Source: Alphaproteobacteria bacterium
GTDB taxonomy: Bacteria; Pseudomonadota; Alphaproteobacteria; UBA7887
Length of the DNA stretch: 64,000 nt
Direction: 5' to 3'
NCBI GenBank assembly: GCA_965243325.1
Contig: CBDEUQ010000003.1
Coordinates: 2,020,304 to 2,084,303, forward strand
Positions 1,995 to 38,502 of the stretch are shown in pieces. Position 1 is the first letter of the stretch; each line of letters opens with the position of its first letter. The notes beneath the pieces are model-generated. The model made no database searches. It saw nothing but the letters and a program-made list of their open reading frames with translations, and was not told the DNA's origin. Made by a program: the position numbers and the translations under genes.

Positions 1995-2513
1995 CTATGC
2001 CTTCGACCCTCGCAGGGCGGAGTGGCCGAGAGGGAGGAACAAGCGCATCGGATCGTCCGTGAGCGGGGCGAAGCCGAAGCCCTCGTAGAAGAGTTTCGCG
2101 TCGTCGTTCGCGGCGTCCACGATCAGGGCGTGCATGGCCACGGTCTCGTCCGCGGCGACGACGCGCTTGACCGCATCGGCGAGAAGCATGCGGCCGACAC
2201 CGCGCCCGTGCGCCGAGCGGTCGACCGCCAGCCGGCCGATCAGGGCGCAGGGAACCGGATGGCGCGGCAGCTTCCGGGACAGTGCCTCGGGCAGCGAGGC
2301 CAGATCGACTGCCAGCGCGCTCAGCGTGTAGAAGCCGAGCACGGCATCGACGTTGCCGGCAGTGCAGACGAACACCCGGGCGATCCGGCGCCGGACATCC
2401 TGTCCGGCCTGGCGCGCCAGGTGGCGGTCGAGTTCCGGAAGGCCGCAGGAAAACGCCCTTCGGTCATGCCGCTGGCCGAGAGGCTCGACGACCAGCGTAT
2501 CGGGGGCGGTCAA
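1995..2513 (-). CDS. GNAT-family acetyltransferase, toxin of a DUF1778/GNAT (TacAT/KacAT-like) type II TA pair
   Basis: 172 aa. GNAT acetyl-CoA motif ...HGRGVGRMLLADAVK.... Overlaps the upstream DUF1778 gene by 4 nt (ATGA). Confidence 0.75.
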   Translation of the reverse strand: MTAPDTLVVEPLGQRHDRRAFSCGLPELDRHLARQAGQDVRRRIARVFVCTAGNVDAVLGFYTLSALAVDLASLPEALSRKLPRHPVPCALIGRLAVDRSAHGRGVGRMLLADAVKRVVAADETVAMHALIVDAANDDAKLFYEGFGFAPLTDDPMRLFLPLGHSALRGSKA

Positions 2514-2797
2514 CGCGATTCGACGCGCCGGGCGTGCTCCTCCAGGGCGGCGCGGAGCCGATCGTTCGGCGGCGGCGGCTCGGCCAGCGCATCGAAGAAG
2601 CGCATCGCGGCCTCGCGGGTGAGCGCCACGGCCTCGCGCCGGCCGATGGTTGCCTCCGCGCTCTCCAACGCGCTGGACACGATGAAGGCGCTGACGGTCT
2701 TGCCTTCGACGGATGCCGCCCGCTCGATACGCCGCTTCGCCGTTTCGCTGAGCCGCAGGTTGATTCGCGCACTGCGAGCCGTGTTCGCGGGGGCCAT
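2510..2797 (-). CDS. DUF1778-family antitoxin (RHH-like), partner of the GNAT toxin
   Basis: The ORF track gives 2510..3001 with a TTG start. The internal ATG at 2797..2795 gives a 95-aa product MAPANTARSARINLRLSETAKRRIERAASVEGKTVSAFIVSSALESAEA..., typical DUF1778 length and sequence. The choice of start is an inference. Confidence 0.65.
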   Translation of the reverse strand: MAPANTARSARINLRLSETAKRRIERAASVEGKTVSAFIVSSALESAEATIGRREAVALTREAAMRFFDALAEPPPPNDRLRAALEEHARRVESR

Positions 2798-3281
2798 GGC
2801 GCCGTCCTCCCTTACCGACGCCGATGTACGTCGTTCCGGTGCCCGTCGCAAGGTCGAACCGCTTCGACGCACATCCAACGGCAGTAGTTCCCGATGCGCT
2901 CGGCCAAACCCGTTGCTTTGCGGGTCAGTTACCGCCGAAGGGGCGCGTGGCGCGGATTCAACCGAGTTTTCGACCGCTCTGTCGAATCGAAGGTCGGGCA
3001 ACCCTGGTCATGCGCTATGGCTCCTGCACTCCTCCGTTATGCCCGGACTTGATCCGTGCTCCGGCTTTGCTGGCTCGGGGACGGGCTCCACCGCAGGTTA
3101 TCGCGAACGTGCGGAGCCTCAGCATCACCGGCAGCGTGTGGACCGCCCGCGCCGAGTCGCGTCGCTCGCGGACACACCCCGCAAGCGCCTCGGTCAACGC
3201 GAGCCGGTGCGCCACCGCGCCGACGCGCAGCAGCACCAGCCCGGCACCCGACGACATCGACCCGCCCTCAATACTGGCACT

Positions 3282-9678: not shown

Positions 9679-10224
9679 GAACGAGCTATGGAACTGGAGA
9701 TAGCCGATCCAAGTTTCGGACGGCCGGGAGGATCTCAATTGGGTGCTGGTGACGGGGAAACGGCCGCGGAGGACACCACTGGGCAGGGACAGGAAGATGA
9801 AGGGAATGGCCGGCTCGGAGAAGCGGGAAGCGGACACTCTCCGTTTGAACCGGACCCTACGCGCAATAGGCCCAAACCCGGCCCAATCTCTTCCGAATCA
9901 GCTAGACCGCCGGGACGTGCTAAGGAACAGTCCGGTTCATCGGGCTCGGGTGGGGGCGACAGCTTTAGACGCAAACCCGATCTCGAAAAGCAACACATTG
10001 AGGAGCTAAAGCGCAGCCACTATGCCAGCCATTGCCAGATGTGCTTGTGCGAACGTTCGCCTCAAGAGTTAGCTCCAGCTGGCAGCTACATTGAGGCAGA
10101 AGAAGTACGTCAGAGCGTTGTGCATGCGCACCATACCGATTTAGTGTCGGCCGGCGGCGCACGTCACGCCGGCAACATTATTCTACTGTGCAAGTTACAT
10201 CACGACAACTACGGAAGGCAATTC
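9679..10224 (+). pseudogene. Segment 2 of the giant gene: low-complexity G/S/E-rich linker plus the first half of an HNH nuclease motif, cut by the IS256-family insertion
   Basis: In frame with 8527..8529 once the IS630 and one TA are removed (cta|gaa cga gct atg...). Carries ...HYASHCQMCLCERSP...VHAHHTDLVSAGGARHAGNIILLCKLHHDNYGRQF (CxxC...HxHH...GG...N...CxxHH). Confidence 0.7.
10217..10224. repeat. 8-bp target-site duplication (ggcaattc), left copy, IS256-family copy 1
   Basis: The same 8-mer recurs directly after the right IR at 11505..11512. Confidence 0.8.
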
Positions 10225-11504
10225 GGTGACGTAAGAATTTATGTGTCAGGTGGGAAGGGGGTACTCCCTGTGGTGACGACAACCACAAACAGGAGCACCC
10301 CGCATGTCCCAGCAAGCTGCGACGATCATGAGCCTACCCCAGGCCTTTGAGGTGGTGAAGGAGATGCAGGCAGGCGGACTGGACTGGGGCGAGGGCTACC
10401 GCCCGCTCGGCCGCCAGGCGCTGGCCGAGATCATCGAGGGCCGGATGGCCGAGGCGGTGGATCGCTGGCTCGACAACCTCGACGCCGGCGCGATGCGCGA
10501 CCGGCGCAACGGGACCTACCGCCGCTGCCTGCTGAGCGAGCTCGGCGACATCGAGCTCAACGTGCCGCGCACCCGGCACTTCTGCCCGACCGGGGTTGTG
10601 AAGAGCTACGCAAGGCGCGCGCCGGAGATCGACCGTGCCATCCTGGCCGGCTTCGTGCTGGGGCTTTCGACGCGCAAGGTGGGCGAGGTCCTGCTGGCCC
10701 TGCTCGGGCGCCCGGTCTCGGCCGCGACGGTGAGCCGGGTCTCCAAGACGCTCGACATGGCGGTCGAGGCCTTCCACCGCAGGCCGCTGAAGAACGCCTA
10801 CAAGGCGCTGATGCTCGACGGCGTGGTGCTGGCCCGCAAGACCGGCGCCGGCGCGCTCAGGAGGCCGGTCCTGGTGGCGCTCGGCATCCGCCCCGACGGC
10901 AAGAAGGAGATCATCGACTTCCATCTCGCCGTCAGCGAAGGCGCCCGCGAGTGGGAAGTGTTCCTCAACCGGCTGTACCACCGCGGGCTCACCGGCGAAG
11001 GCCTTGAGATGATCTGCGTCGATGGCGGCAAGGGCCTGCTGGCTGCCTTGCCGTTCGTCTATCCCGGCATCCCGGTTCAGAGGTGCTGGGCGCACAAGAT
11101 GCGCAACATCCTCAACAAGGTCCGCAAGGCCGACCAGGAGGCCGTCAAGGCCGATGTCCACGCCGTCATGAATGCAAAGAGCCGCCGCAAGGCCCAGAGC
11201 GCCGCCCGACGCTTCGCCGACCGCTGGCAAAGCACCTACCCCAAGGCCGTCGCCTGCCTGCGCAGCGATCTCGACGAGCTGCTCACCTGCTTCCGCTACC
11301 GGACCCTCGATGAGCGAAAGCGGGTCAGGACCACCAACGCCATCGAACGAAGGTTCCGGGAGGTCCGCAGACGAACCCGGCCCATGGGAACCTTCCAGGA
11401 CCGGACCTCAATGGACCGCGTCCTCTACGCGGTATTCATCCACGAAAACAAGTCTCAGGGAATCAGCACCCCCGTCTCCCTGACACATAACTCTTGACGT
11501 TACC
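10225..11504 (+). mobile_element. IS256-family insertion sequence, copy 1 (1,280 bp)
   Basis: Imperfect terminal IRs ggtgacgtaagaatttatgtgtca and tgacacataactcttgacgttacc (rc ggtaacgtcaagagttatgtgtca). Flanked by an 8-bp TSD. Identical over its full length to 37223..38502. Confidence 0.85.
10304..11497 (+). CDS. IS256-family (Mutator-type) transposase
   Basis: 397 aa with family hallmarks ...RNGTYRR...LNVPRTRHF... and ...QRCWAHKMRN.... Identical to 37302..38495. Confidence 0.9.
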   Translation: MSQQAATIMSLPQAFEVVKEMQAGGLDWGEGYRPLGRQALAEIIEGRMAEAVDRWLDNLDAGAMRDRRNGTYRRCLLSELGDIELNVPRTRHFCPTGVVKSYARRAPEIDRAILAGFVLGLSTRKVGEVLLALLGRPVSAATVSRVSKTLDMAVEAFHRRPLKNAYKALMLDGVVLARKTGAGALRRPVLVALGIRPDGKKEIIDFHLAVSEGAREWEVFLNRLYHRGLTGEGLEMICVDGGKGLLAALPFVYPGIPVQRCWAHKMRNILNKVRKADQEAVKADVHAVMNAKSRRKAQSAARRFADRWQSTYPKAVACLRSDLDELLTCFRYRTLDERKRVRTTNAIERRFREVRRRTRPMGTFQDRTSMDRVLYAVFIHENKSQGISTPVSLTHNS

Positions 11505-32892: not shown

Positions 32893-33524
32893 CGCATTCC
32901 GCTCACGGCCCCGCCCGCATCGGCATCGGCGGCCCCGTCGGCTCCGGCAAGACCGCGCTCGCCGACGCCCTCTGCAAGCGCCTGCGCGGCGACTGGGAGA
33001 TCGCGGTCGTAACGAACGACATCTACACCCGGGAGGACGCCAACTTCCTCGTCCGCTCGGGCGCGCTGGTGGCCGAGCGCATCGCCGGCGTGGAGACCGG
33101 GGGCTGTCCGCACACCGCCATCCGCGAGGACGCCTCCATCAACCTCGCGGCGGTCGCGGCGATGAACGCCCGGTTCCCGGACCTCGACCTGATCCTGATC
33201 GAGTCCGGCGGCGACAACCTTGCCGCCACCTTCAGCCCCGAGCTGGCCGACATCACGCTCTACGTCATCGACGTGGCCGCCGGCGACAAGATCCCGCGCA
33301 AGGGCGGGCCCGGCATCACGCGTTCCGACCTGCTGGTGATCAACAAGATCGATCTCGCGCCGCTGGTCGGCGCCGACCTCGGCGTGATGGACCGCGATGC
33401 GCGCAAGATGCGGGGCGAGCGCCCCTTCGTTTTCGCCAACCTCAAGGCCGGCGACGGGCTGGCGCGCATCGCCGACTTCGTGCTGACCCAGACCGGCCTC
33501 GCGGGCGCGCCCGCCGCATCGTAA
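32889..33524 (+). CDS. ureG: Urease accessory GTPase UreG
   Basis: ATG at 32889 (ATGA overlap with ureF), in frame inside track ORF 32253..33524. P-loop [11 protein letters not shown], then ...ESGGDNL... and ...VINKIDLA.... Confidence 0.9.
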
Positions 33525-33599: not shown

Positions 33600-34076
33600 C
33601 TAATCGTCGTCGTCGTCCCAGTCGTCGTCGTACCGGTCGCCGTGACGGCGGTGCCAGCGGTCGCTCATGGACAGCGCGCCGTCGCCGTTGCGGTCCAGCC
33701 GCTCCACGACGGCCGCGAGCGGTCGGTCGTATTCGGCGCGGCTGACGACGGCGTCGCCGTCGGCGTCGAGGAACTGGAAGGCCCGCACCGTCAGCGGCCG
33801 CGTCGTCTCGTGCCAGACACCGGCGAACTCGTCGAGGTCGAGGTTTCCGTCGCCGTTGCCGTCGTGGGCCGCGTGGCGCGCGTTGCGCACCGTGTCGATC
33901 TCGGCCTGCGTCAGCTTGCCGTCGCCGTCGGCGTCGACCGACCGGAACATGTCCATCGCCATGACCGCGAACGGCCCCTTGGCCAAGTGGGCGTGGCCCG
34001 CGTAGCCGGCGACCGCGACTCCGACCACGGCGACCGCCGCGCCGGCTCCGATCCAGGCCATCGTTCTCTTTTTCAT
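33600..34076 (-). CDS. Secreted or periplasmic EF-hand calcium-binding protein
   Basis: Track ORF 33600..34133. Probable start MKKRTMAWIGAGAAVAVVGVAVAG (signal peptide) at 34076. Four EF-hand loops (DADGDGKLTQAE, DGNGDGNLDLDE, DADGDAVVSRAE, DRNGDGALSMSD) and an acidic C-terminal tail DDDWDDDDD. Confidence 0.8.
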   Translation of the reverse strand: MKKRTMAWIGAGAAVAVVGVAVAGYAGHAHLAKGPFAVMAMDMFRSVDADGDGKLTQAEIDTVRNARHAAHDGNGDGNLDLDEFAGVWHETTRPLTVRAFQFLDADGDAVVSRAEYDRPLAAVVERLDRNGDGALSMSDRWHRRHGDRYDDDWDDDDD

Positions 34077-34246
34077 CGTTCCGCTCCCTTGTGGGTTGTC
34101 GATGCGCCGGAACGTGGGCCGCGCCTGTCGCAAAAGCTTGTCCCGCGGGCTCCTTTTTCGTCGCGAACGCTGTCCGGCGGGCCGGTTGACAGACTTTGTT
34201 ACACTTTCGTCCCGCGTCCGCCGGCGCGCCGCATTATCGGTCCCTC

Positions 34247-34966
34247 ATGGAGCCTGAGCCGCACGTCCTCGTCGTCGACGACCACCGGGACATCCGCGAG
34301 CCGCTGGCCCGCTACCTGGAGCGTCACGGCCTGCGCGCTTCGGTCGCCGACGGGGCGCGGGCCGCGCGCCGCGTTCTCGAGCAGGCGGCCGTGGATCTCG
34401 TCGTGCTCGACGTCATGATGCCGGGCGAGGACGGTCTGGCGCTGTGCCGGCACCTGCGCGAGACCACGCGGATTCCCGTCATCCTGCTGACGGCAATGGC
34501 CGAGGACACCGACCGGATCGTCGGCCTCGAGATGGGCGCCGACGACTATGTGACCAAGCCGTTCAACCCGCGCGAGCTGCTGGCCCGCGTCAAGGCGGTG
34601 ATCCGGCGCGCGCGCAGCCTGCCGCCCGACCGCGAGCCGAAGGCCGAGGGGCGGATCGCCTTTGATCGCTGGACGCTGGACGCGGACCGTCGCGAGCTTA
34701 CCGACGAGGGCGGAGTCGTCATACCGTTGTCCACCGGCGAGTTCCGGCTGCTCATGGCCCTGGTCGAGCGCCCGGGAATGGTGCTGTCGCGCGACCGGCT
34801 GCTGGACCTCACGCGCGGCCGCCGTGCGATGCCGTTCGACCGCGCGGTCGACAACCAGGTGAGCCGGCTCAGGCGCAAGATCGAACGCGATCCGGCGAGG
34901 CCGGAACTGATCGTCACCGTGTGGGGCGGCGGCTACCGCTTCGCCGGCAAGGTCGAGCGCGCATGA
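34247..34966 (+). CDS. OmpR-family two-component response regulator
   Basis: Track ORF 34196..34966. Probable start MEPEPHVLVVDDH at 34247. Receiver residues DD...D...K. C-terminal winged helix ...RLLDLTRGRRAMPFDRAVDNQVSRLRRKIE.... Confidence 0.85.
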   Translation: MEPEPHVLVVDDHRDIREPLARYLERHGLRASVADGARAARRVLEQAAVDLVVLDVMMPGEDGLALCRHLRETTRIPVILLTAMAEDTDRIVGLEMGADDYVTKPFNPRELLARVKAVIRRARSLPPDREPKAEGRIAFDRWTLDADRRELTDEGGVVIPLSTGEFRLLMALVERPGMVLSRDRLLDLTRGRRAMPFDRAVDNQVSRLRRKIERDPARPELIVTVWGGGYRFAGKVERA

Positions 34967-36396
34967 GGGCGCTACCGCGGAGCCTCGCCGGCCGGCTCGC
35001 GCTCGTGCTGCTGCTGGCGCTCGTCGCGGCGCAGGGCATCGCCGTGTTCCTGTTCGCCGGCGAACGCGCCGCCGCCGTGCATCACGCCTATCGCGAGAAC
35101 GTCGTCGCGCGGACGGCGACCGTCGTGCGCCTCATCCAGGGCACGCCGCCCGCGCTCCACGACTCCGTTGCCGCCGCGGCGCGAACGCGCTTCGTCCGCT
35201 ATTCGCTGACCCCGGAGCCGGTCGTCGAGCACCTCGGCAGCGGCGAGCGGGCGGAAGCGATCGCCCGCGACCTCGCGCGCGCCCTCGGCGTCGACCGCGG
35301 CCGGGTGCGCATCGCCCCCCTGTGGCGGCCGCATCGACACGGCGAGCACGATGACGATGACGATCACGATGACGACGATCACGATGACGAGCATGACGAC
35401 GACGATGACGACGATCACGAGCGGCCGCGGTGGAAGCGGCACTGGTTCGCCGTTTCCATCGCCATGCCCGACGACGGCTGGCTCAACGTCCAGGTGGGAC
35501 CGCCGCCCGGCGCCCGGCCATTCGGATGGACGTTTCTGCTCTCCTTCGCCCTGTCGGCGCTGGCGGTCGGCGGCGTCGCGGTGTGGGCGGCGCGGCGCCT
35601 GACGCGGCCGATGCGCCGTCTTGCCGATGCCGCCGATGCGCTCGGGCGGGGCGAGGATGTCGGCGACCTGCCGGAGGCGGGGCCGCTCGAGACGCGCCGG
35701 ACCGTCCGCGCCTTCAACCGGATGCGTGACCGCATCGACCGTTTCGTCCGCGACCGCACGACGATGCTCGCGGCCATCTCGCACGATCTCCGGACGCCGA
35801 TCGCGGGCCTGCGTCTCCAGGCCGAGTTCGTCGCCGATGAGGAGGTGCGCAAGAGGATCGCGTCCGGCCTCGACGAGATGCAACGGATGACCGAAGAGAC
35901 GCTGGCATTCGCCCGCGAGGACATGACCCGCGAGGAGACGCGGACGGTGGACCTTCGCGCGCTCGTGGACAGCGTGGCGGCGGACCTCGCGGACCTCGGG
36001 CACGACGTATCGCTGGCCGACGGTGGGCGCGTGCTGGTGCGCTGCCGGCCGGCGGCCCTGCGCCGCGCCGTGGCGAACCTGCTCGAGAACGCCGCCGTCT
36101 ACGGCAGGCGCGGCCGCGCCCGCATCGACCGGCCGGAAGGCGACGTCCGCGTCGCGGTCGACGACGAGGGGCCGGGGATCGCCGATGCCGACCTCGAGCG
36201 GGTTTTCGAGCCCTTCGTCAGGCTCGAGGGGTCGCGCAGCCGCGAGACCGGCGGCAGCGGGCTCGGCCTCGCCATCGCCCGCACCGTCGTCCGCGGCCAC
36301 GGCGGCGACGTGCGGCTGGAGAACCGCAAGGAAGGCGGCCTGCGCGCGACCCTCACGCTGCCGCGCGCCGCGGTCGTCGAGGGCGGAGCGGCGTAG
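34963..36396 (+). CDS. Sensor histidine kinase. The periplasmic domain contains a His/Asp-rich tract
   Basis: ATGA overlap with the response-regulator stop. Two TM segments flank a periplasmic domain containing HRHGEHDDDDDHDDDDHDDEHDDDDDDDHERPR. HAMP. H-box ...AAISHDLRTPIAGL.... HATPase motifs ...LLENAAVYG..., DDEGPGI, GGSGLGLAIA. Confidence 0.85.
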   Translation: MRALPRSLAGRLALVLLLALVAAQGIAVFLFAGERAAAVHHAYRENVVARTATVVRLIQGTPPALHDSVAAAARTRFVRYSLTPEPVVEHLGSGERAEAIARDLARALGVDRGRVRIAPLWRPHRHGEHDDDDDHDDDDHDDEHDDDDDDDHERPRWKRHWFAVSIAMPDDGWLNVQVGPPPGARPFGWTFLLSFALSALAVGGVAVWAARRLTRPMRRLADAADALGRGEDVGDLPEAGPLETRRTVRAFNRMRDRIDRFVRDRTTMLAAISHDLRTPIAGLRLQAEFVADEEVRKRIASGLDEMQRMTEETLAFAREDMTREETRTVDLRALVDSVAADLADLGHDVSLADGGRVLVRCRPAALRRAVANLLENAAVYGRRGRARIDRPEGDVRVAVDDEGPGIADADLERVFEPFVRLEGSRSRETGGSGLGLAIARTVVRGHGGDVRLENRKEGGLRATLTLPRAAVVEGGAA

Positions 36397-36399
36397 GCC

Positions 36400-36546
36400 A
36401 TGCGATGTCCCGGCCCGTACTTCCATCCGCTGCAGGGTGACGGGGCAGGCCGCTACGCCGTACGCTTGACCGCCAACTACCGGGTCACGTTCGGATCGGG
36501 CGATGACGGCGCGGCAGACGTGGACATGGAGGACTATTGTCGATGA
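36400..36546 (+). pseudogene. higB: N-terminally truncated higB (RelE/ParE-superfamily toxin) remnant encoding only the C-terminal ~48 aa
   Basis: MRCPGPYFHPLQGDGAGRYAVRLTANYRVTFGSGDDGAADVDMEDYCR matches the C-terminal half of HigB toxins (...LHPLKGDREGYWSI.VR.NWRI.F.F..GDAY.V.YEDYH). The N-terminal ~45 aa are absent. It begins 4 nt after the kinase stop. ATGA overlap with higA. Confidence 0.6.
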
Positions 36547-36848
36547 TGGAGAGGCATCCTTCCGTGATGCCGGTGCATCCCGGAGAGATCCTGCGTGAGG
36601 ATATTCTGCCCGCGGTTTCGATTACCGGAACGGCGATGGCAGCAGCGCTCGGGATCTCCGAGCAGACCCTTTACGACATCCTTGACGAAAAGCAGCCTGT
36701 GACGGCCGAGATGGCCGTGCGGTTCGGCAAGCTGTTCGGCAATGGCGCCCGCTTCTGGGCGACTCTCCAATGCCGCTACGATCTGGCAATTGCGGAACGC
36801 TCCGTGGAGGTCTCGAATATCCCGACCCTCGAAGCGAGGGCGAGTTGA
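36543..36848 (+). CDS. higA: HigA-family antitoxin (XRE-type HTH)
   Basis: MMERHPSVMPVHPGEILREDILPAVSITGTAMAAALGISEQTLYDILDEKQPVTAEMAVRFGKLFGNGARFWATLQ..., a canonical HigA. Track ORF 36537..36848 uses a TTG 6 nt upstream. Confidence 0.85.
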   Translation: MMERHPSVMPVHPGEILREDILPAVSITGTAMAAALGISEQTLYDILDEKQPVTAEMAVRFGKLFGNGARFWATLQCRYDLAIAERSVEVSNIPTLEARAS

Positions 36849-37214: not shown

Positions 37215-37222
37215 AGCCACTC
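37215..37222. repeat. 8-bp target-site duplication (agccactc), left copy, IS256-family copy 2
   Basis: Repeated at 38503..38510, directly after the right IR. Confidence 0.8.
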
Positions 37223-38502
37223 GGTGACGTAAGAATTTATGTGTCAGGTGGGAAGGGGGTACTCCCTGTGGTGACGACAACCACAAACAGGAGCACCCCG
37301 CATGTCCCAGCAAGCTGCGACGATCATGAGCCTACCCCAGGCCTTTGAGGTGGTGAAGGAGATGCAGGCAGGCGGACTGGACTGGGGCGAGGGCTACCGC
37401 CCGCTCGGCCGCCAGGCGCTGGCCGAGATCATCGAGGGCCGGATGGCCGAGGCGGTGGATCGCTGGCTCGACAACCTCGACGCCGGCGCGATGCGCGACC
37501 GGCGCAACGGGACCTACCGCCGCTGCCTGCTGAGCGAGCTCGGCGACATCGAGCTCAACGTGCCGCGCACCCGGCACTTCTGCCCGACCGGGGTTGTGAA
37601 GAGCTACGCAAGGCGCGCGCCGGAGATCGACCGTGCCATCCTGGCCGGCTTCGTGCTGGGGCTTTCGACGCGCAAGGTGGGCGAGGTCCTGCTGGCCCTG
37701 CTCGGGCGCCCGGTCTCGGCCGCGACGGTGAGCCGGGTCTCCAAGACGCTCGACATGGCGGTCGAGGCCTTCCACCGCAGGCCGCTGAAGAACGCCTACA
37801 AGGCGCTGATGCTCGACGGCGTGGTGCTGGCCCGCAAGACCGGCGCCGGCGCGCTCAGGAGGCCGGTCCTGGTGGCGCTCGGCATCCGCCCCGACGGCAA
37901 GAAGGAGATCATCGACTTCCATCTCGCCGTCAGCGAAGGCGCCCGCGAGTGGGAAGTGTTCCTCAACCGGCTGTACCACCGCGGGCTCACCGGCGAAGGC
38001 CTTGAGATGATCTGCGTCGATGGCGGCAAGGGCCTGCTGGCTGCCTTGCCGTTCGTCTATCCCGGCATCCCGGTTCAGAGGTGCTGGGCGCACAAGATGC
38101 GCAACATCCTCAACAAGGTCCGCAAGGCCGACCAGGAGGCCGTCAAGGCCGATGTCCACGCCGTCATGAATGCAAAGAGCCGCCGCAAGGCCCAGAGCGC
38201 CGCCCGACGCTTCGCCGACCGCTGGCAAAGCACCTACCCCAAGGCCGTCGCCTGCCTGCGCAGCGATCTCGACGAGCTGCTCACCTGCTTCCGCTACCGG
38301 ACCCTCGATGAGCGAAAGCGGGTCAGGACCACCAACGCCATCGAACGAAGGTTCCGGGAGGTCCGCAGACGAACCCGGCCCATGGGAACCTTCCAGGACC
38401 GGACCTCAATGGACCGCGTCCTCTACGCGGTATTCATCCACGAAAACAAGTCTCAGGGAATCAGCACCCCCGTCTCCCTGACACATAACTCTTGACGTTA
38501 CC
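37223..38502 (+). mobile_element. IS256-family insertion sequence, copy 2 (identical to 10225..11504)
   Basis: Identity to copy 1 begins at ggtgacgtaag and ends at ...gacgttacc. Its own distinct 8-bp TSD. Same orientation as copy 1, offset exactly 26,998 bp. Confidence 0.85.
37302..38495 (+). CDS. IS256-family transposase (identical to 10304..11497)
   Basis: Identical 397-aa translation in the ORF track. Confidence 0.9.
   Translation: MSQQAATIMSLPQAFEVVKEMQAGGLDWGEGYRPLGRQALAEIIEGRMAEAVDRWLDNLDAGAMRDRRNGTYRRCLLSELGDIELNVPRTRHFCPTGVVKSYARRAPEIDRAILAGFVLGLSTRKVGEVLLALLGRPVSAATVSRVSKTLDMAVEAFHRRPLKNAYKALMLDGVVLARKTGAGALRRPVLVALGIRPDGKKEIIDFHLAVSEGAREWEVFLNRLYHRGLTGEGLEMICVDGGKGLLAALPFVYPGIPVQRCWAHKMRNILNKVRKADQEAVKADVHAVMNAKSRRKAQSAARRFADRWQSTYPKAVACLRSDLDELLTCFRYRTLDERKRVRTTNAIERRFREVRRRTRPMGTFQDRTSMDRVLYAVFIHENKSQGISTPVSLTHNS

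Follow-up and report, generated by a model that had tools for sequence, protein, structure and literature searches.

The 64,000-nucleotide (nt) window analyzed here, which is the whole stretch of contig CBDEUQ010000003.1 under study, contains three adjacent genes that encode an exported protein with four EF-hands, an OmpR-family response regulator, and a sensor histidine kinase with an Asp/His-rich periplasmic loop. We consider it near certain that these genes form a conserved unit, and it is well supported that the loop of the kinase has a function and is connected with the C-terminal tail of the EF-hand protein. The charges of loop and tail change together, and the trio is found in numerous marine bacteria, the majority of them uncultured; our data suggest a circuit for cation sensing that has not been described before, and not a switch driven by repeats.

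The gene for the EF-hand protein (33600-34076, minus strand; 158 amino acids [aa], starting with MKKRTMAW), identified as an open reading frame (ORF) with its translation, is separated by a divergent intergenic control region of 170 bp (34077..34246) from the response regulator gene (34247-34966, plus strand; 239 aa), in whose product Pfam detects Response_reg (107 bits) and Trans_reg_C (78 bits) domains. The stop codon of the regulator gene and the start codon of the kinase gene overlap as ATGA, and the kinase (34963-36396, plus strand; 477 aa) carries the Pfam domains HAMP, HisKA, and HATPase_c. All three genes and the Asp/His tract were found where an earlier annotation of this stretch, referred to below as the original prediction, had placed them. 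The top NCBIfam match of the regulator was OmpR, with 258.8 bits and thus under the cut-off of 331. The cytoplasmic part of the kinase was nearest to EnvZ and CpxA; the best curated matches were EnvZ, CpxA, and RstB, all under their cut-offs.

Hydropathy analysis revealed two membrane segments in the kinase (TM1, aa 12-30; TM2, aa 191-209), which bracket a periplasmic domain of ~aa 34-186 and are followed by the HAMP, HisKA (H274), and HATPase_c domains. Three positive charges precede TM1 and five follow TM2. Since the Asp/His tract lies between TM1 and TM2, with these flanking positive charges and HAMP directly after TM2, it is periplasmic; this topology check places aa 124-155 between the two membrane helices and not in the cytoplasm, in agreement with the original prediction. 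The Asp/His-rich loop has the sequence HRHGEHDDDDDHDDDDHDDEHDDDDDDDHERP (aa 124-155; 35332..35427, plus strand), with a His/Asp core from H129 to H152 (nt 35347-35418, plus strand), and is flanked by Trp, Arg, His, and Lys residues. An AlphaFold2 (AF2) model of kinase aa 1-215, computed with 25 homologues in the input, had a mean predicted local distance difference test (pLDDT) score of 75.5 and contained a small alpha/beta periplasmic domain with helices at 63-72 and 95-108 and strands at 78-83, 115-119, 162-167, and 173-178. Values of pLDDT below 50 were obtained for aa 122-137 and 147-158, and the tract appears in this model as a disordered loop inserted between strands of the periplasmic domain, which is itself folded with confidence. 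This fold found no match in the PDB, either by Foldseek (best E value, 1.1) or by sequence profile, and no Pfam family spans the periplasmic domain.

In nearly all of the best 120 homologues of the kinase, a segment rich in Asp, His, Arg, Gly, and Trp begins at the same alignment position. Its aligned length ranges from 14 to 54 residues (median, 29), its net charge spans -32 to +4 across this natural series, and the endings HDHDHG and DHHHGP recur. The loops consist of 52.7% Asp, 16.2% His, 10.0% Arg, 8.0% Gly, and 3.9% Glu. Ala and Val, each one nucleotide change away from Asp codons, account for 0.4% and 0.1% of the loop, compared with 19.5% and 10.6% of the remaining domain, and the Asp:Glu ratio of 13:1 has no mutational explanation in a 70% G+C genome. 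The fixed position, the scarcity of Ala and Val, and the mutationally unexplained preference for Asp over Glu argue that the loop is under selection and is not neutral filler.

The EF-hand protein ends in a C-terminal low-complexity tail, RWHRRHGDRYDDDWDDDDD (33603..33659, minus strand), in which a basic/His lead-in is followed by an Asp/Trp run, and which is disordered in the AF2 model (pLDDT below 50 at aa 144-152). All EF-hand orthologues carry a short terminal low-complexity tail with an Arg/His lead-in and then often an Asp/Trp-rich run (e.g., ...HDDDDGWWDDD); among EF-hand proteins at least 95% identical (158-165 aa), this tail was the sole site of indels. In a comparison of 35 genomes, the acidic fraction of the kinase loop correlated with that of the EF-hand tail (Spearman rho, 0.76; p = 1.5e-7), as did net charge (rho, 0.69) and His count (rho, 0.59), while loop length and tail length were not correlated (rho, -0.16). 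For phylogenetic control, a neighbor-joining tree was derived from the kinase minus the loop, and independent contrasts (n = 34) gave r = 0.68 for the fraction acidic and r = 0.73 for net charge per residue, which was reached in 0 of 10,000 permutations (p < 1e-4). The pairing is illustrated by L001, L002, L005, and L007, where Arg/Gly-rich net-positive loops accompany Arg/Gly-rich tails, and by L009, L011, L013, and L015, where His/Gly/Asn-rich loops accompany His/Arg tails; Asp/Trp loops are paired with Asp/Trp tails. Loop and tail also have motifs in common. RWHRRHG starts the tail in the window, and the kinase loop of the distant homologue P0315 ends in HRWHRRHG; the tail of the P0315 partner contains GRHYDDDDDDH, compared with RRHYRDDDDDD in the P0315 loop itself, and L049 has RHYRDDDD in the kinase loop and RHYDDDD in the EF-hand tail. 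Such same-sign covariation is consistent with a shared ligand or partner, such as cations or the membrane surface, or else with mimicry or competition, but not with a direct pairing of charges between the two segments. The original prediction had overlooked the conservation of the loop across the family and its covariation with the tail, which are the most informative features of the system.

We retrieved 42 related loci (L001-L042), all from metagenome-assembled genomes (MAGs), by scanning one genome per species with an alignment of the sensor domain. In 35 of them, an orthologue of the EF-hand protein (E values of 1e-34 to 1e-63) was encoded divergently from the regulator-kinase operon, and 40 contained an orthologue of the regulator; at least three of the seven loci lacking an EF-hand match were interrupted by contig ends. 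The same divergent layout was observed in L049, a relative with less than 50% identity from a lower-GC organism. The functional linkage of the three genes that had been proposed is borne out by this distribution. Many full-length homologues of the kinase were found at 61 to 68% identity, and the profile family of the sensor domain comprised 643 representative clusters with a cut-off of E ≤ 1e-3, a number that fell to 261 when the cut-off was tightened to E ≤ 1e-10. Across the related loci, the genes flanking the trio were otherwise not conserved. As a departure from the common layout, the divergent partner in L020, a Defluviicoccus MAG, is not an EF-hand protein but a 337-aa lipoprotein-like ORF (2003-3016, minus strand) whose N-terminal region is acidic, rich in Gly and Glu, and of low complexity; the L020 kinase loop is short, with 23 aa and a net charge of -8. 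A gene for a cytochrome b561-type membrane protein (PF01292; for example, 3828-4370 in L047) is located just downstream of the EF-hand gene and on the same strand in 14 of the 42 loci, where the two may be co-transcribed; it is not present in the window.

The MAG labels of the 42 loci were mostly Alphaproteobacteria, Paracoccaceae, Rhodospirillales, and Defluviicoccus. Some loci came from the gammaproteobacterial Candidatus Poriferihabitaceae, so that two proteobacterial classes are represented, and a few were binned as Vicinamibacteria or Binatia. The spread over classes points to either horizontal transfer within a common habitat or mis-binning. Many of the names hint at sponge microbiomes (Ca. 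Poriferihabitaceae; bins SB06xx, RHO1, COS2, and APA), and, together with a published study (PMC12859430), they suggest that the carriers are associated with sponges.

The EF-hand protein has a single N-terminal hydrophobic segment (aa 6-24 by hydropathy) and is predicted to be exported via a Sec-type signal peptide, or held by a membrane anchor, of ~aa 1-27. Matches to Pfam EF-hand_1, EF-hand_5, EF-hand_6, and EF-hand_7 exceeded the gathering cut-offs (E values of 6e-14 to 9e-10), and the AF2 model contained helix-loop-helix units across aa 35-141; compared with known folds, this model gave weak generic matches (calmodulin, polcalcin, and LanM). All four EF loops are encoded on the minus strand, namely, loop 1, DADGDGKLTQAE (aa 48-59; nt 33900-33935), loop 2, DGNGDGNLDLDE (aa 72-83; nt 33828-33863), loop 3, DADGDAVVSRAE (aa 104-115; nt 33732-33767), and loop 4, DRNGDGALSMSD (aa 128-139; nt 33660-33695). 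They show the features of the EF-hand family, with paired units and 12-residue loops in which positions 1, 3, and 5 carry acidic or amide ligands, position 6 a Gly, position 8 a hydrophobic residue, and position 12 a Glu or Asp, two non-canonical positions aside: Ala at position 6 of loop 3 and Asp at position 12 of loop 4. The original count of four EF-hand loops therefore stands and is supported by Pfam, but loops 3 and 4 deviate slightly from the canonical pattern that had been ascribed to all of them. In an alignment of 60 homologues, positions 1, 5, and 12 were invariant in most loops, the invariant residues being D48, D52, G53, E59, D72, G77, E83, D104, D106, E115, D128, D132, and D139. 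Because the positions that provide Ca2+ ligands are invariant in these homologues, the role in responding to Ca2+ or divalent cations that had been put forward is plausible. As a separate observation, position 12 of loop 4 (D139; 33660-33695) is Asp, not Glu, in all 60 homologues. Asp at this position elsewhere goes with a weaker affinity for Ca2+ and a relatively better affinity for Mg2+; therefore, the fourth site may differ from the others in ion preference.

The shared control region was analyzed in an intergenic alignment of 35 loci, in which blocks were counted at a conservation of at least 80%. Conserved blocks are located at 34126-34142 (window, TGTCGCAAAAGCTTGTC; consensus, TGTCGCAnAAnCnTGnC), at 34159-34164 (window, cGTCGC; consensus, TGTCGC; 33 bp after the first copy), at 34187-34203 (matching the consensus TGACACAnnTTGTTACA), and at 34228-34239 (window, GCCGCATTATCG; consensus, GnCGCGTAAGCT), and the sequence between them is otherwise divergent. 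The window contains a tandem 10-bp repeat at 34187-34206, TGACAGACTT/TGTTACACTT, and the AT-rich distant relative L050 has the same layout with clear tandem repeats, TGTCACAAAAGTT/TGTCCACAACCTT and TTGATACATTT/TGATACAATT. OmpR-family regulators bind tandem direct repeats with a period of ~10-13 bp, and the regulator of the trio probably binds the direct-repeat boxes of the shared promoter region. Within the 64-kb window, there were no other copies of the conserved boxes beyond chance, including upstream of the ure genes, and nothing thus indicates that these genes are part of the regulon. A consensus scan of the intergenic region returned no sigma-70 promoter. In many relatives in the alignment, a small conserved palindrome (consensus, CCATCGGnTGTCGATGG) precedes the start codon of the EF-hand gene by 15-30 nt, where it could be a hairpin of the 5' untranslated region or an operator; in the window it is degenerate (GTGGGTTGTCGATG, 34091-34104).

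We regard it as quite possible, and adopt as a working interpretation, that the trio is an envelope-sensing module responsive to Ca2+ or other divalent cations, with the EF-hand protein as an accessory or feedback partner. The kinase is an EnvZ/CpxA-like enzyme whose small, family-specific alpha/beta periplasmic domain projects the disordered acidic Asp/His loop, and it would phosphorylate the OmpR-type regulator. The latter would bind the direct-repeat boxes of the shared promoter and regulate its own operon as well as the divergent EF-hand gene, which would close a feedback loop. The signal would most likely be the periplasmic level of hard divalent cations, Ca2+ in the first place and possibly Mg2+. 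The EF-hand protein would bind periplasmic Ca2+ through its invariant loops and act on the kinase as CpxP does on CpxA and DbfQ on DbfS, so that the kinase might read the ionic state via its acidic loop, via the EF-hand protein, or via both. The loop and its look-alike tail would constitute a low-affinity, electrostatic, cation-dependent element that could work by PhoQ-like cation bridging, or the tail could compete with the loop for the same site; in-frame indels in loop and tail would retune this element over evolutionary time, at the ordinary rates of low-complexity regions and with no programmed switch. In this scheme we infer which ion is sensed, in which direction the genes are regulated, that the regulator binds the boxes, and that the EF-hand protein touches the kinase. 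A more specific form of the scheme, which we consider doubtful, is that kinase loop and EF-hand tail co-evolve and mimic each other: the actual receptor of Ca2+ would be the EF-hand protein, with a tail that competes with the loop or zips onto it via bridging cations, resulting in a three-part extracytoplasmic Ca2+ sensor whose set-point is reset by in-frame indels and charge changes in both segments. If so, such a sensor might respond to Ca2+ that is under host control in the sponge matrix, given the sponge association suggested by the names of its carriers, and its paired "loop and decoy tail" mechanism would have no described precedent in bacterial two-component systems.

Several observations weigh against a cation-sensing module of this kind. 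The clade comprising L001, L002, L005, and L007 has net-positive Arg/Gly loops and tails, and those of L003 and L021 are near neutral, with the EF-hands intact in both cases; since basic and neutral loop clades keep their EF-hands, direct binding of Ca2+ by the loop is not a universal mechanism. Among the distant full-length relatives, an acidic tract is clearly present in about half, and the others have just 3 to 5 acidic residues in its place. Tail and loop resemble each other mostly in composition, and their similarity in residue order is weak (mean z of 0.87 against shuffles that preserve composition, with positive values in 86% of the 35 loci). The charge of the loop is not compensated by the remaining periplasmic domain, the correlation between loop and core charge being weakly positive (rho, +0.33 to +0.37), and simple docking of the acidic loop on a basic core is for this reason unlikely. 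The loop His content of 16% would also suit Zn2+ or Ni2+, and no mechanism can be borrowed by homology because the periplasmic fold has no PDB match. Furthermore, the EF-hand gene could be a mere member of the regulon whose product does not act on the kinase.

The His residues of the loop are central to one alternative, in which the loop binds Zn2+, Ni2+, Co2+, or Cu2+ in the manner of the His/acid-rich loops of periplasmic metal-binding proteins, the module controls metal homeostasis, and the EF-hand protein is secondary. The His share across the 120 homologues, the recurring HDHDHG and DHHHGP endings, and the His-rich stretches of the EF-hand protein after the signal peptide and in the tail speak for it, as does the proximity of accessory genes for the nickel enzyme urease, since ureG ends at 33524 and the urease genes thus adjoin the trio in the window, as the original prediction had noted. 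The urease/nickel link drawn from this proximity found no support, however: ureG is absent from beside the module in all 42 related loci, urease adjacency is confined to the lineage of the window itself (L043, L044, and L046), and none of the promoter boxes occurs upstream of the window ure genes or elsewhere in the window. In addition, no conserved genes for metal efflux or uptake lie beside the module, the His content of the loop varies, with Asp-only loops also occurring (for example, in P0315, with D11), and the invariant EF-hand partner, with its oxygen-only ligands, suits hard cations. Membership in the heavy-metal sensor kinases (CusS/CzcS/SilS) was rejected, as the match to TIGR01386 scored 143.3 bits against a cut-off of 292.55 and covers only TM2 and the cytoplasmic part (aa 193-466). 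We judge a transition-metal sensor unlikely. Far more improbable still, to a degree that we find it hard to credit, is a lanthanide system in which the EF-hand protein is lanmodulin-like and the kinase senses rare-earth ions. The NCBIfam lanmodulin profile (NF053806) aligns aa 16-136 to profile positions 7-115 of 132 with an E value of 1.5e-7, and the LanM crystal structure 8fns is among the weak fold matches (probability of 0.93, but E value of 0.16). The paired EF loops are just 12 residues apart, a spacing found in LanM and unlike that in calmodulin. The profile score of 31.6 bits is nevertheless far under the cut-off of 135 bits, and the conserved neighborhood contains no genes for methanol oxidation/XoxF or lanthanide uptake. 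LanM EF loops typically have Pro at position 2; the four loops of the window protein begin with DA, DG, DA, and DR, with Pro at this position in none of them, and identity with lanmodulin was rejected. A sensor of something other than cations has to be taken more seriously, although on balance it too falls on the unlikely side. Here, general envelope, osmotic, or pH stress would be read, as by EnvZ or CpxA, through the folded periplasmic part or the membrane helices, the loop would be a tolerated, compositionally filtered spacer, and the EF-hand protein would be a co-regulated Ca2+ buffer. Such a sensor would agree with a cytoplasmic part nearest to EnvZ and CpxA, with a loop length that varies four-fold (14-54) independently of tail length, with the neutral or basic loops of some clades and the frequent lack of the tract in distant relatives, and with the joint drift of loop, core, and tail charges, which is expected under one ionic milieu. 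A spacer is harder to reconcile with a loop that is kept at one position with an extreme and specific composition from which Ala and Val are excluded, that covaries with the tail of another protein after phylogenetic contrasts, and that has motifs in common with this tail. The retention of a divergent exported acidic protein even where the EF-hand protein has been replaced (the L020 lipoprotein) likewise argues against it.

The idea that slipped-strand mispairing at a triplet repeat rapidly alters the length of the loop, and thereby tunes cation affinity between siblings, had been part of the original prediction. The array of GAY and CAY codons is indeed located where it had been described, and Tandem Repeats Finder detected it at 35348-35420. 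It is imperfect (periods of 3/6/9/12/15/27 with 70-86% matches; longest perfect units, (GAC)3 and (GATGAC)2), and since a run of Asp and His has to be encoded in this way, the array adds no separate observation at the DNA level. The strain-level variation in length that had been anticipated was found: kinases at least 94% identical have between 475 and 482 aa, with every indel inside the tract and in frame, and one metagenome sample contained three length variants (477, 479, and 481 aa) with flanks 98-99% identical. A contingency locus could give rise to these patterns and to the same indel behavior in the EF-hand tail. In their DNA, the three variants are set apart by 2-4 codons inserted in frame and by additional point changes. 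Point substitutions are also numerous among the strain differences. The repeat is moreover less pure than expected by chance. GAT accounts for 8 of the 18 Asp codons in the tract (44%), compared with 14.6% in seven neighboring genes (Fisher p = 0.005), and its share family-wide is 34% in the tracts and 17% elsewhere. Asp runs (at least 4) encoded by a single codon were seen in 1 of 39 cases, compared with an expectation of 17.9 under the gene background or 5.8 under tract codon usage (p = 0.013), and 92 Asp codon switches were observed across the family where 69 were expected (p = 4e-4). The longest homocodon run was at most 3 in 32 of 33 loci. Comparison of the window with L043 revealed identical tracts, even though 30 of 1338 flanking positions differ (2.2%). 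A 3-nt unit also keeps the frame, so that the gene would not be switched on and off. With Asp codons that alternate beyond chance, perfect runs of 3 or fewer, and identical tracts at 2.2% divergence, a slippage-tuned sensor is very unlikely, and the codon patterns indicate that the tract is an ordinary low-complexity coding region with repeat purity held low, not a contingency locus.

The cation-responsive module that we favor shares features with several described systems. The trio had been labeled as of the type of CarSR/BqsSR, a Pseudomonas aeruginosa system with which it has in common an OmpR-type regulator, a two-TM kinase, and a small periplasmic domain; CarSR/BqsSR is reportedly tied to Ca2+ and cation stress. 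BqsS/CarS binds Fe2+ via a periplasmic ExxE motif (E45/E48), and Ca2+ has no direct effect on the purified kinase (PMC12424716; PMC4358008). In contrast, the window kinase has R44-E45-N46-V47-V48 at the position of this motif, and the sole ExxE of its periplasmic domain, E95-R-A-E98, is not conserved (family consensus, GERAAAIA). With no conserved ExxE, a cytoplasmic part nearest to EnvZ/CpxA, and a partner that is an EF-hand protein and not of the CarO/CarP type, the label is not supported. In terms of working principle, the trio is closest to the CpxP-CpxRA (Escherichia coli, Vibrio) and DbfQRS modules, of which it is an analogue and not a member. The cpxP gene is located upstream of cpxRA and divergently transcribed, and CpxP, itself Cpx-induced, inhibits the kinase CpxA via the periplasmic domain of the latter (PMC6737893). 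In Vibrio cholerae, DbfQ, whose gene adjoins dbfRS, binds the DbfS sensor domain (PMC12714742). As in these modules, a small exported protein is encoded adjacent or divergent to an operon for an OmpR-type regulator and a HAMP kinase (here in 35 of the 42 loci and in L049), the cytoplasmic part of the window kinase resembles that of CpxA, and the shared promoter region contains conserved boxes; feedback by way of the periplasmic domain of the kinase would follow the same logic. The accessory protein of the window is unrelated to CpxP and DbfQ, since its Pfam matches are EF-hand families alone, and the sensor domain belongs to a different family, has no Pfam or PDB match, and bears the Asp/His loop.

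The closest precedent for the acidic element is PhoQ, likewise a two-TM kinase with an acidic periplasmic cluster, where this cluster is thought to bridge to membrane phospholipids via millimolar Mg2+/Ca2+ and to repress the kinase (PMC4473727). The Trp/Arg/His/Lys flanks of the window loop would suit a membrane interface. The PhoQ cluster is a short patch on the helices of a PDC fold, whereas the loop is a disordered insertion of 14-54 residues in a fold without similarity to PhoQ; some clades of the window family have basic loops, and a dedicated EF-hand partner is present. Two EF-hand proteins of the bacterial periplasm are known to affect signaling. EfhP (PA4107) is membrane anchored and faces the periplasm with two EF-hands (PMC4053335), and the Caulobacter protein CaBP, with three, takes part in a regulatory loop with the stress regulator SigV (PMC13171946). 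In these reports, a pairing with a kinase is described for neither protein (PMC4053335, PMC13171946). The window protein resembles both, as well as Rhizobium calsymin, in having an N-terminal signal peptide or anchor and EF-hands toward the periplasm. It differs from EfhP, which has two EF-hands and is encoded in an operon with DUF692/DUF2063 genes, and from CaBP, with three EF-hands and a link to an extracytoplasmic function sigma factor, in its four EF-hands, its Asp/Trp tail, and its fixed location beside a two-component system. Outside bacteria, calsequestrin and the histidine-rich Ca-binding protein of the sarcoplasmic reticulum bind Ca2+ with low affinity and high capacity and have disordered runs of Asp amid His-rich and basic stretches. 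The likeness of loop and tail to these eukaryotic luminal buffers, which have no signaling domain, is one of composition alone.

Extracellular Ca2+ sensing by bacteria is poorly understood, and the best-known "calcium" system, CarSR/BqsSR, directly senses Fe2+ and not Ca2+ (PMC12424716). With an EF-hand protein, a kinase with a matching loop, and conserved promoter boxes, the trio would be a clearly delimited candidate for the sensing of Ca2+ outside the cytoplasm, one that can be tested and that is widely distributed, over hundreds of sequence clusters. Full-text searches of the literature collection available to us returned no periplasmic EF-hand protein genetically fixed to a kinase, nor one fixed beside a kinase with a matching loop, and, within the same collection, searches on Asp-rich sensor loops and sponge symbionts returned no description of the module. 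Covariation of two disordered charged segments located in separate proteins is unusual, and the natural series of Asp/His loops, with 14-54 residues and net charges from -32 to +4, may be used to study how disordered charged segments set the thresholds of sensors. The module may also shed light on the ways in which marine animal symbionts perceive the ionic conditions around them.

Two insertion sequences of the IS256 family (Transposase_mut, PF00872), each of 1282 bp and 100% identical to one another, are located in direct orientation at 10223-11504 and 37221-38502. They have imperfect terminal inverted repeats and enclose ~25.7 kb with the urea/urease genes and the trio, a layout like that of a composite transposon. 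Because the close relatives L043, L045, and L046 have no IS256-family copy downstream of the kinase, the downstream insertion is recent. Two overlapping small ORFs follow directly after the kinase gene (36400-36546, 48 aa; 36537-36848, 103 aa) and are kept in L043, L045, and L046. The 103-aa ORF contains a helix-turn-helix-like region with a weak match to the YdaS family, and the pair looks like a toxin-antitoxin remnant.

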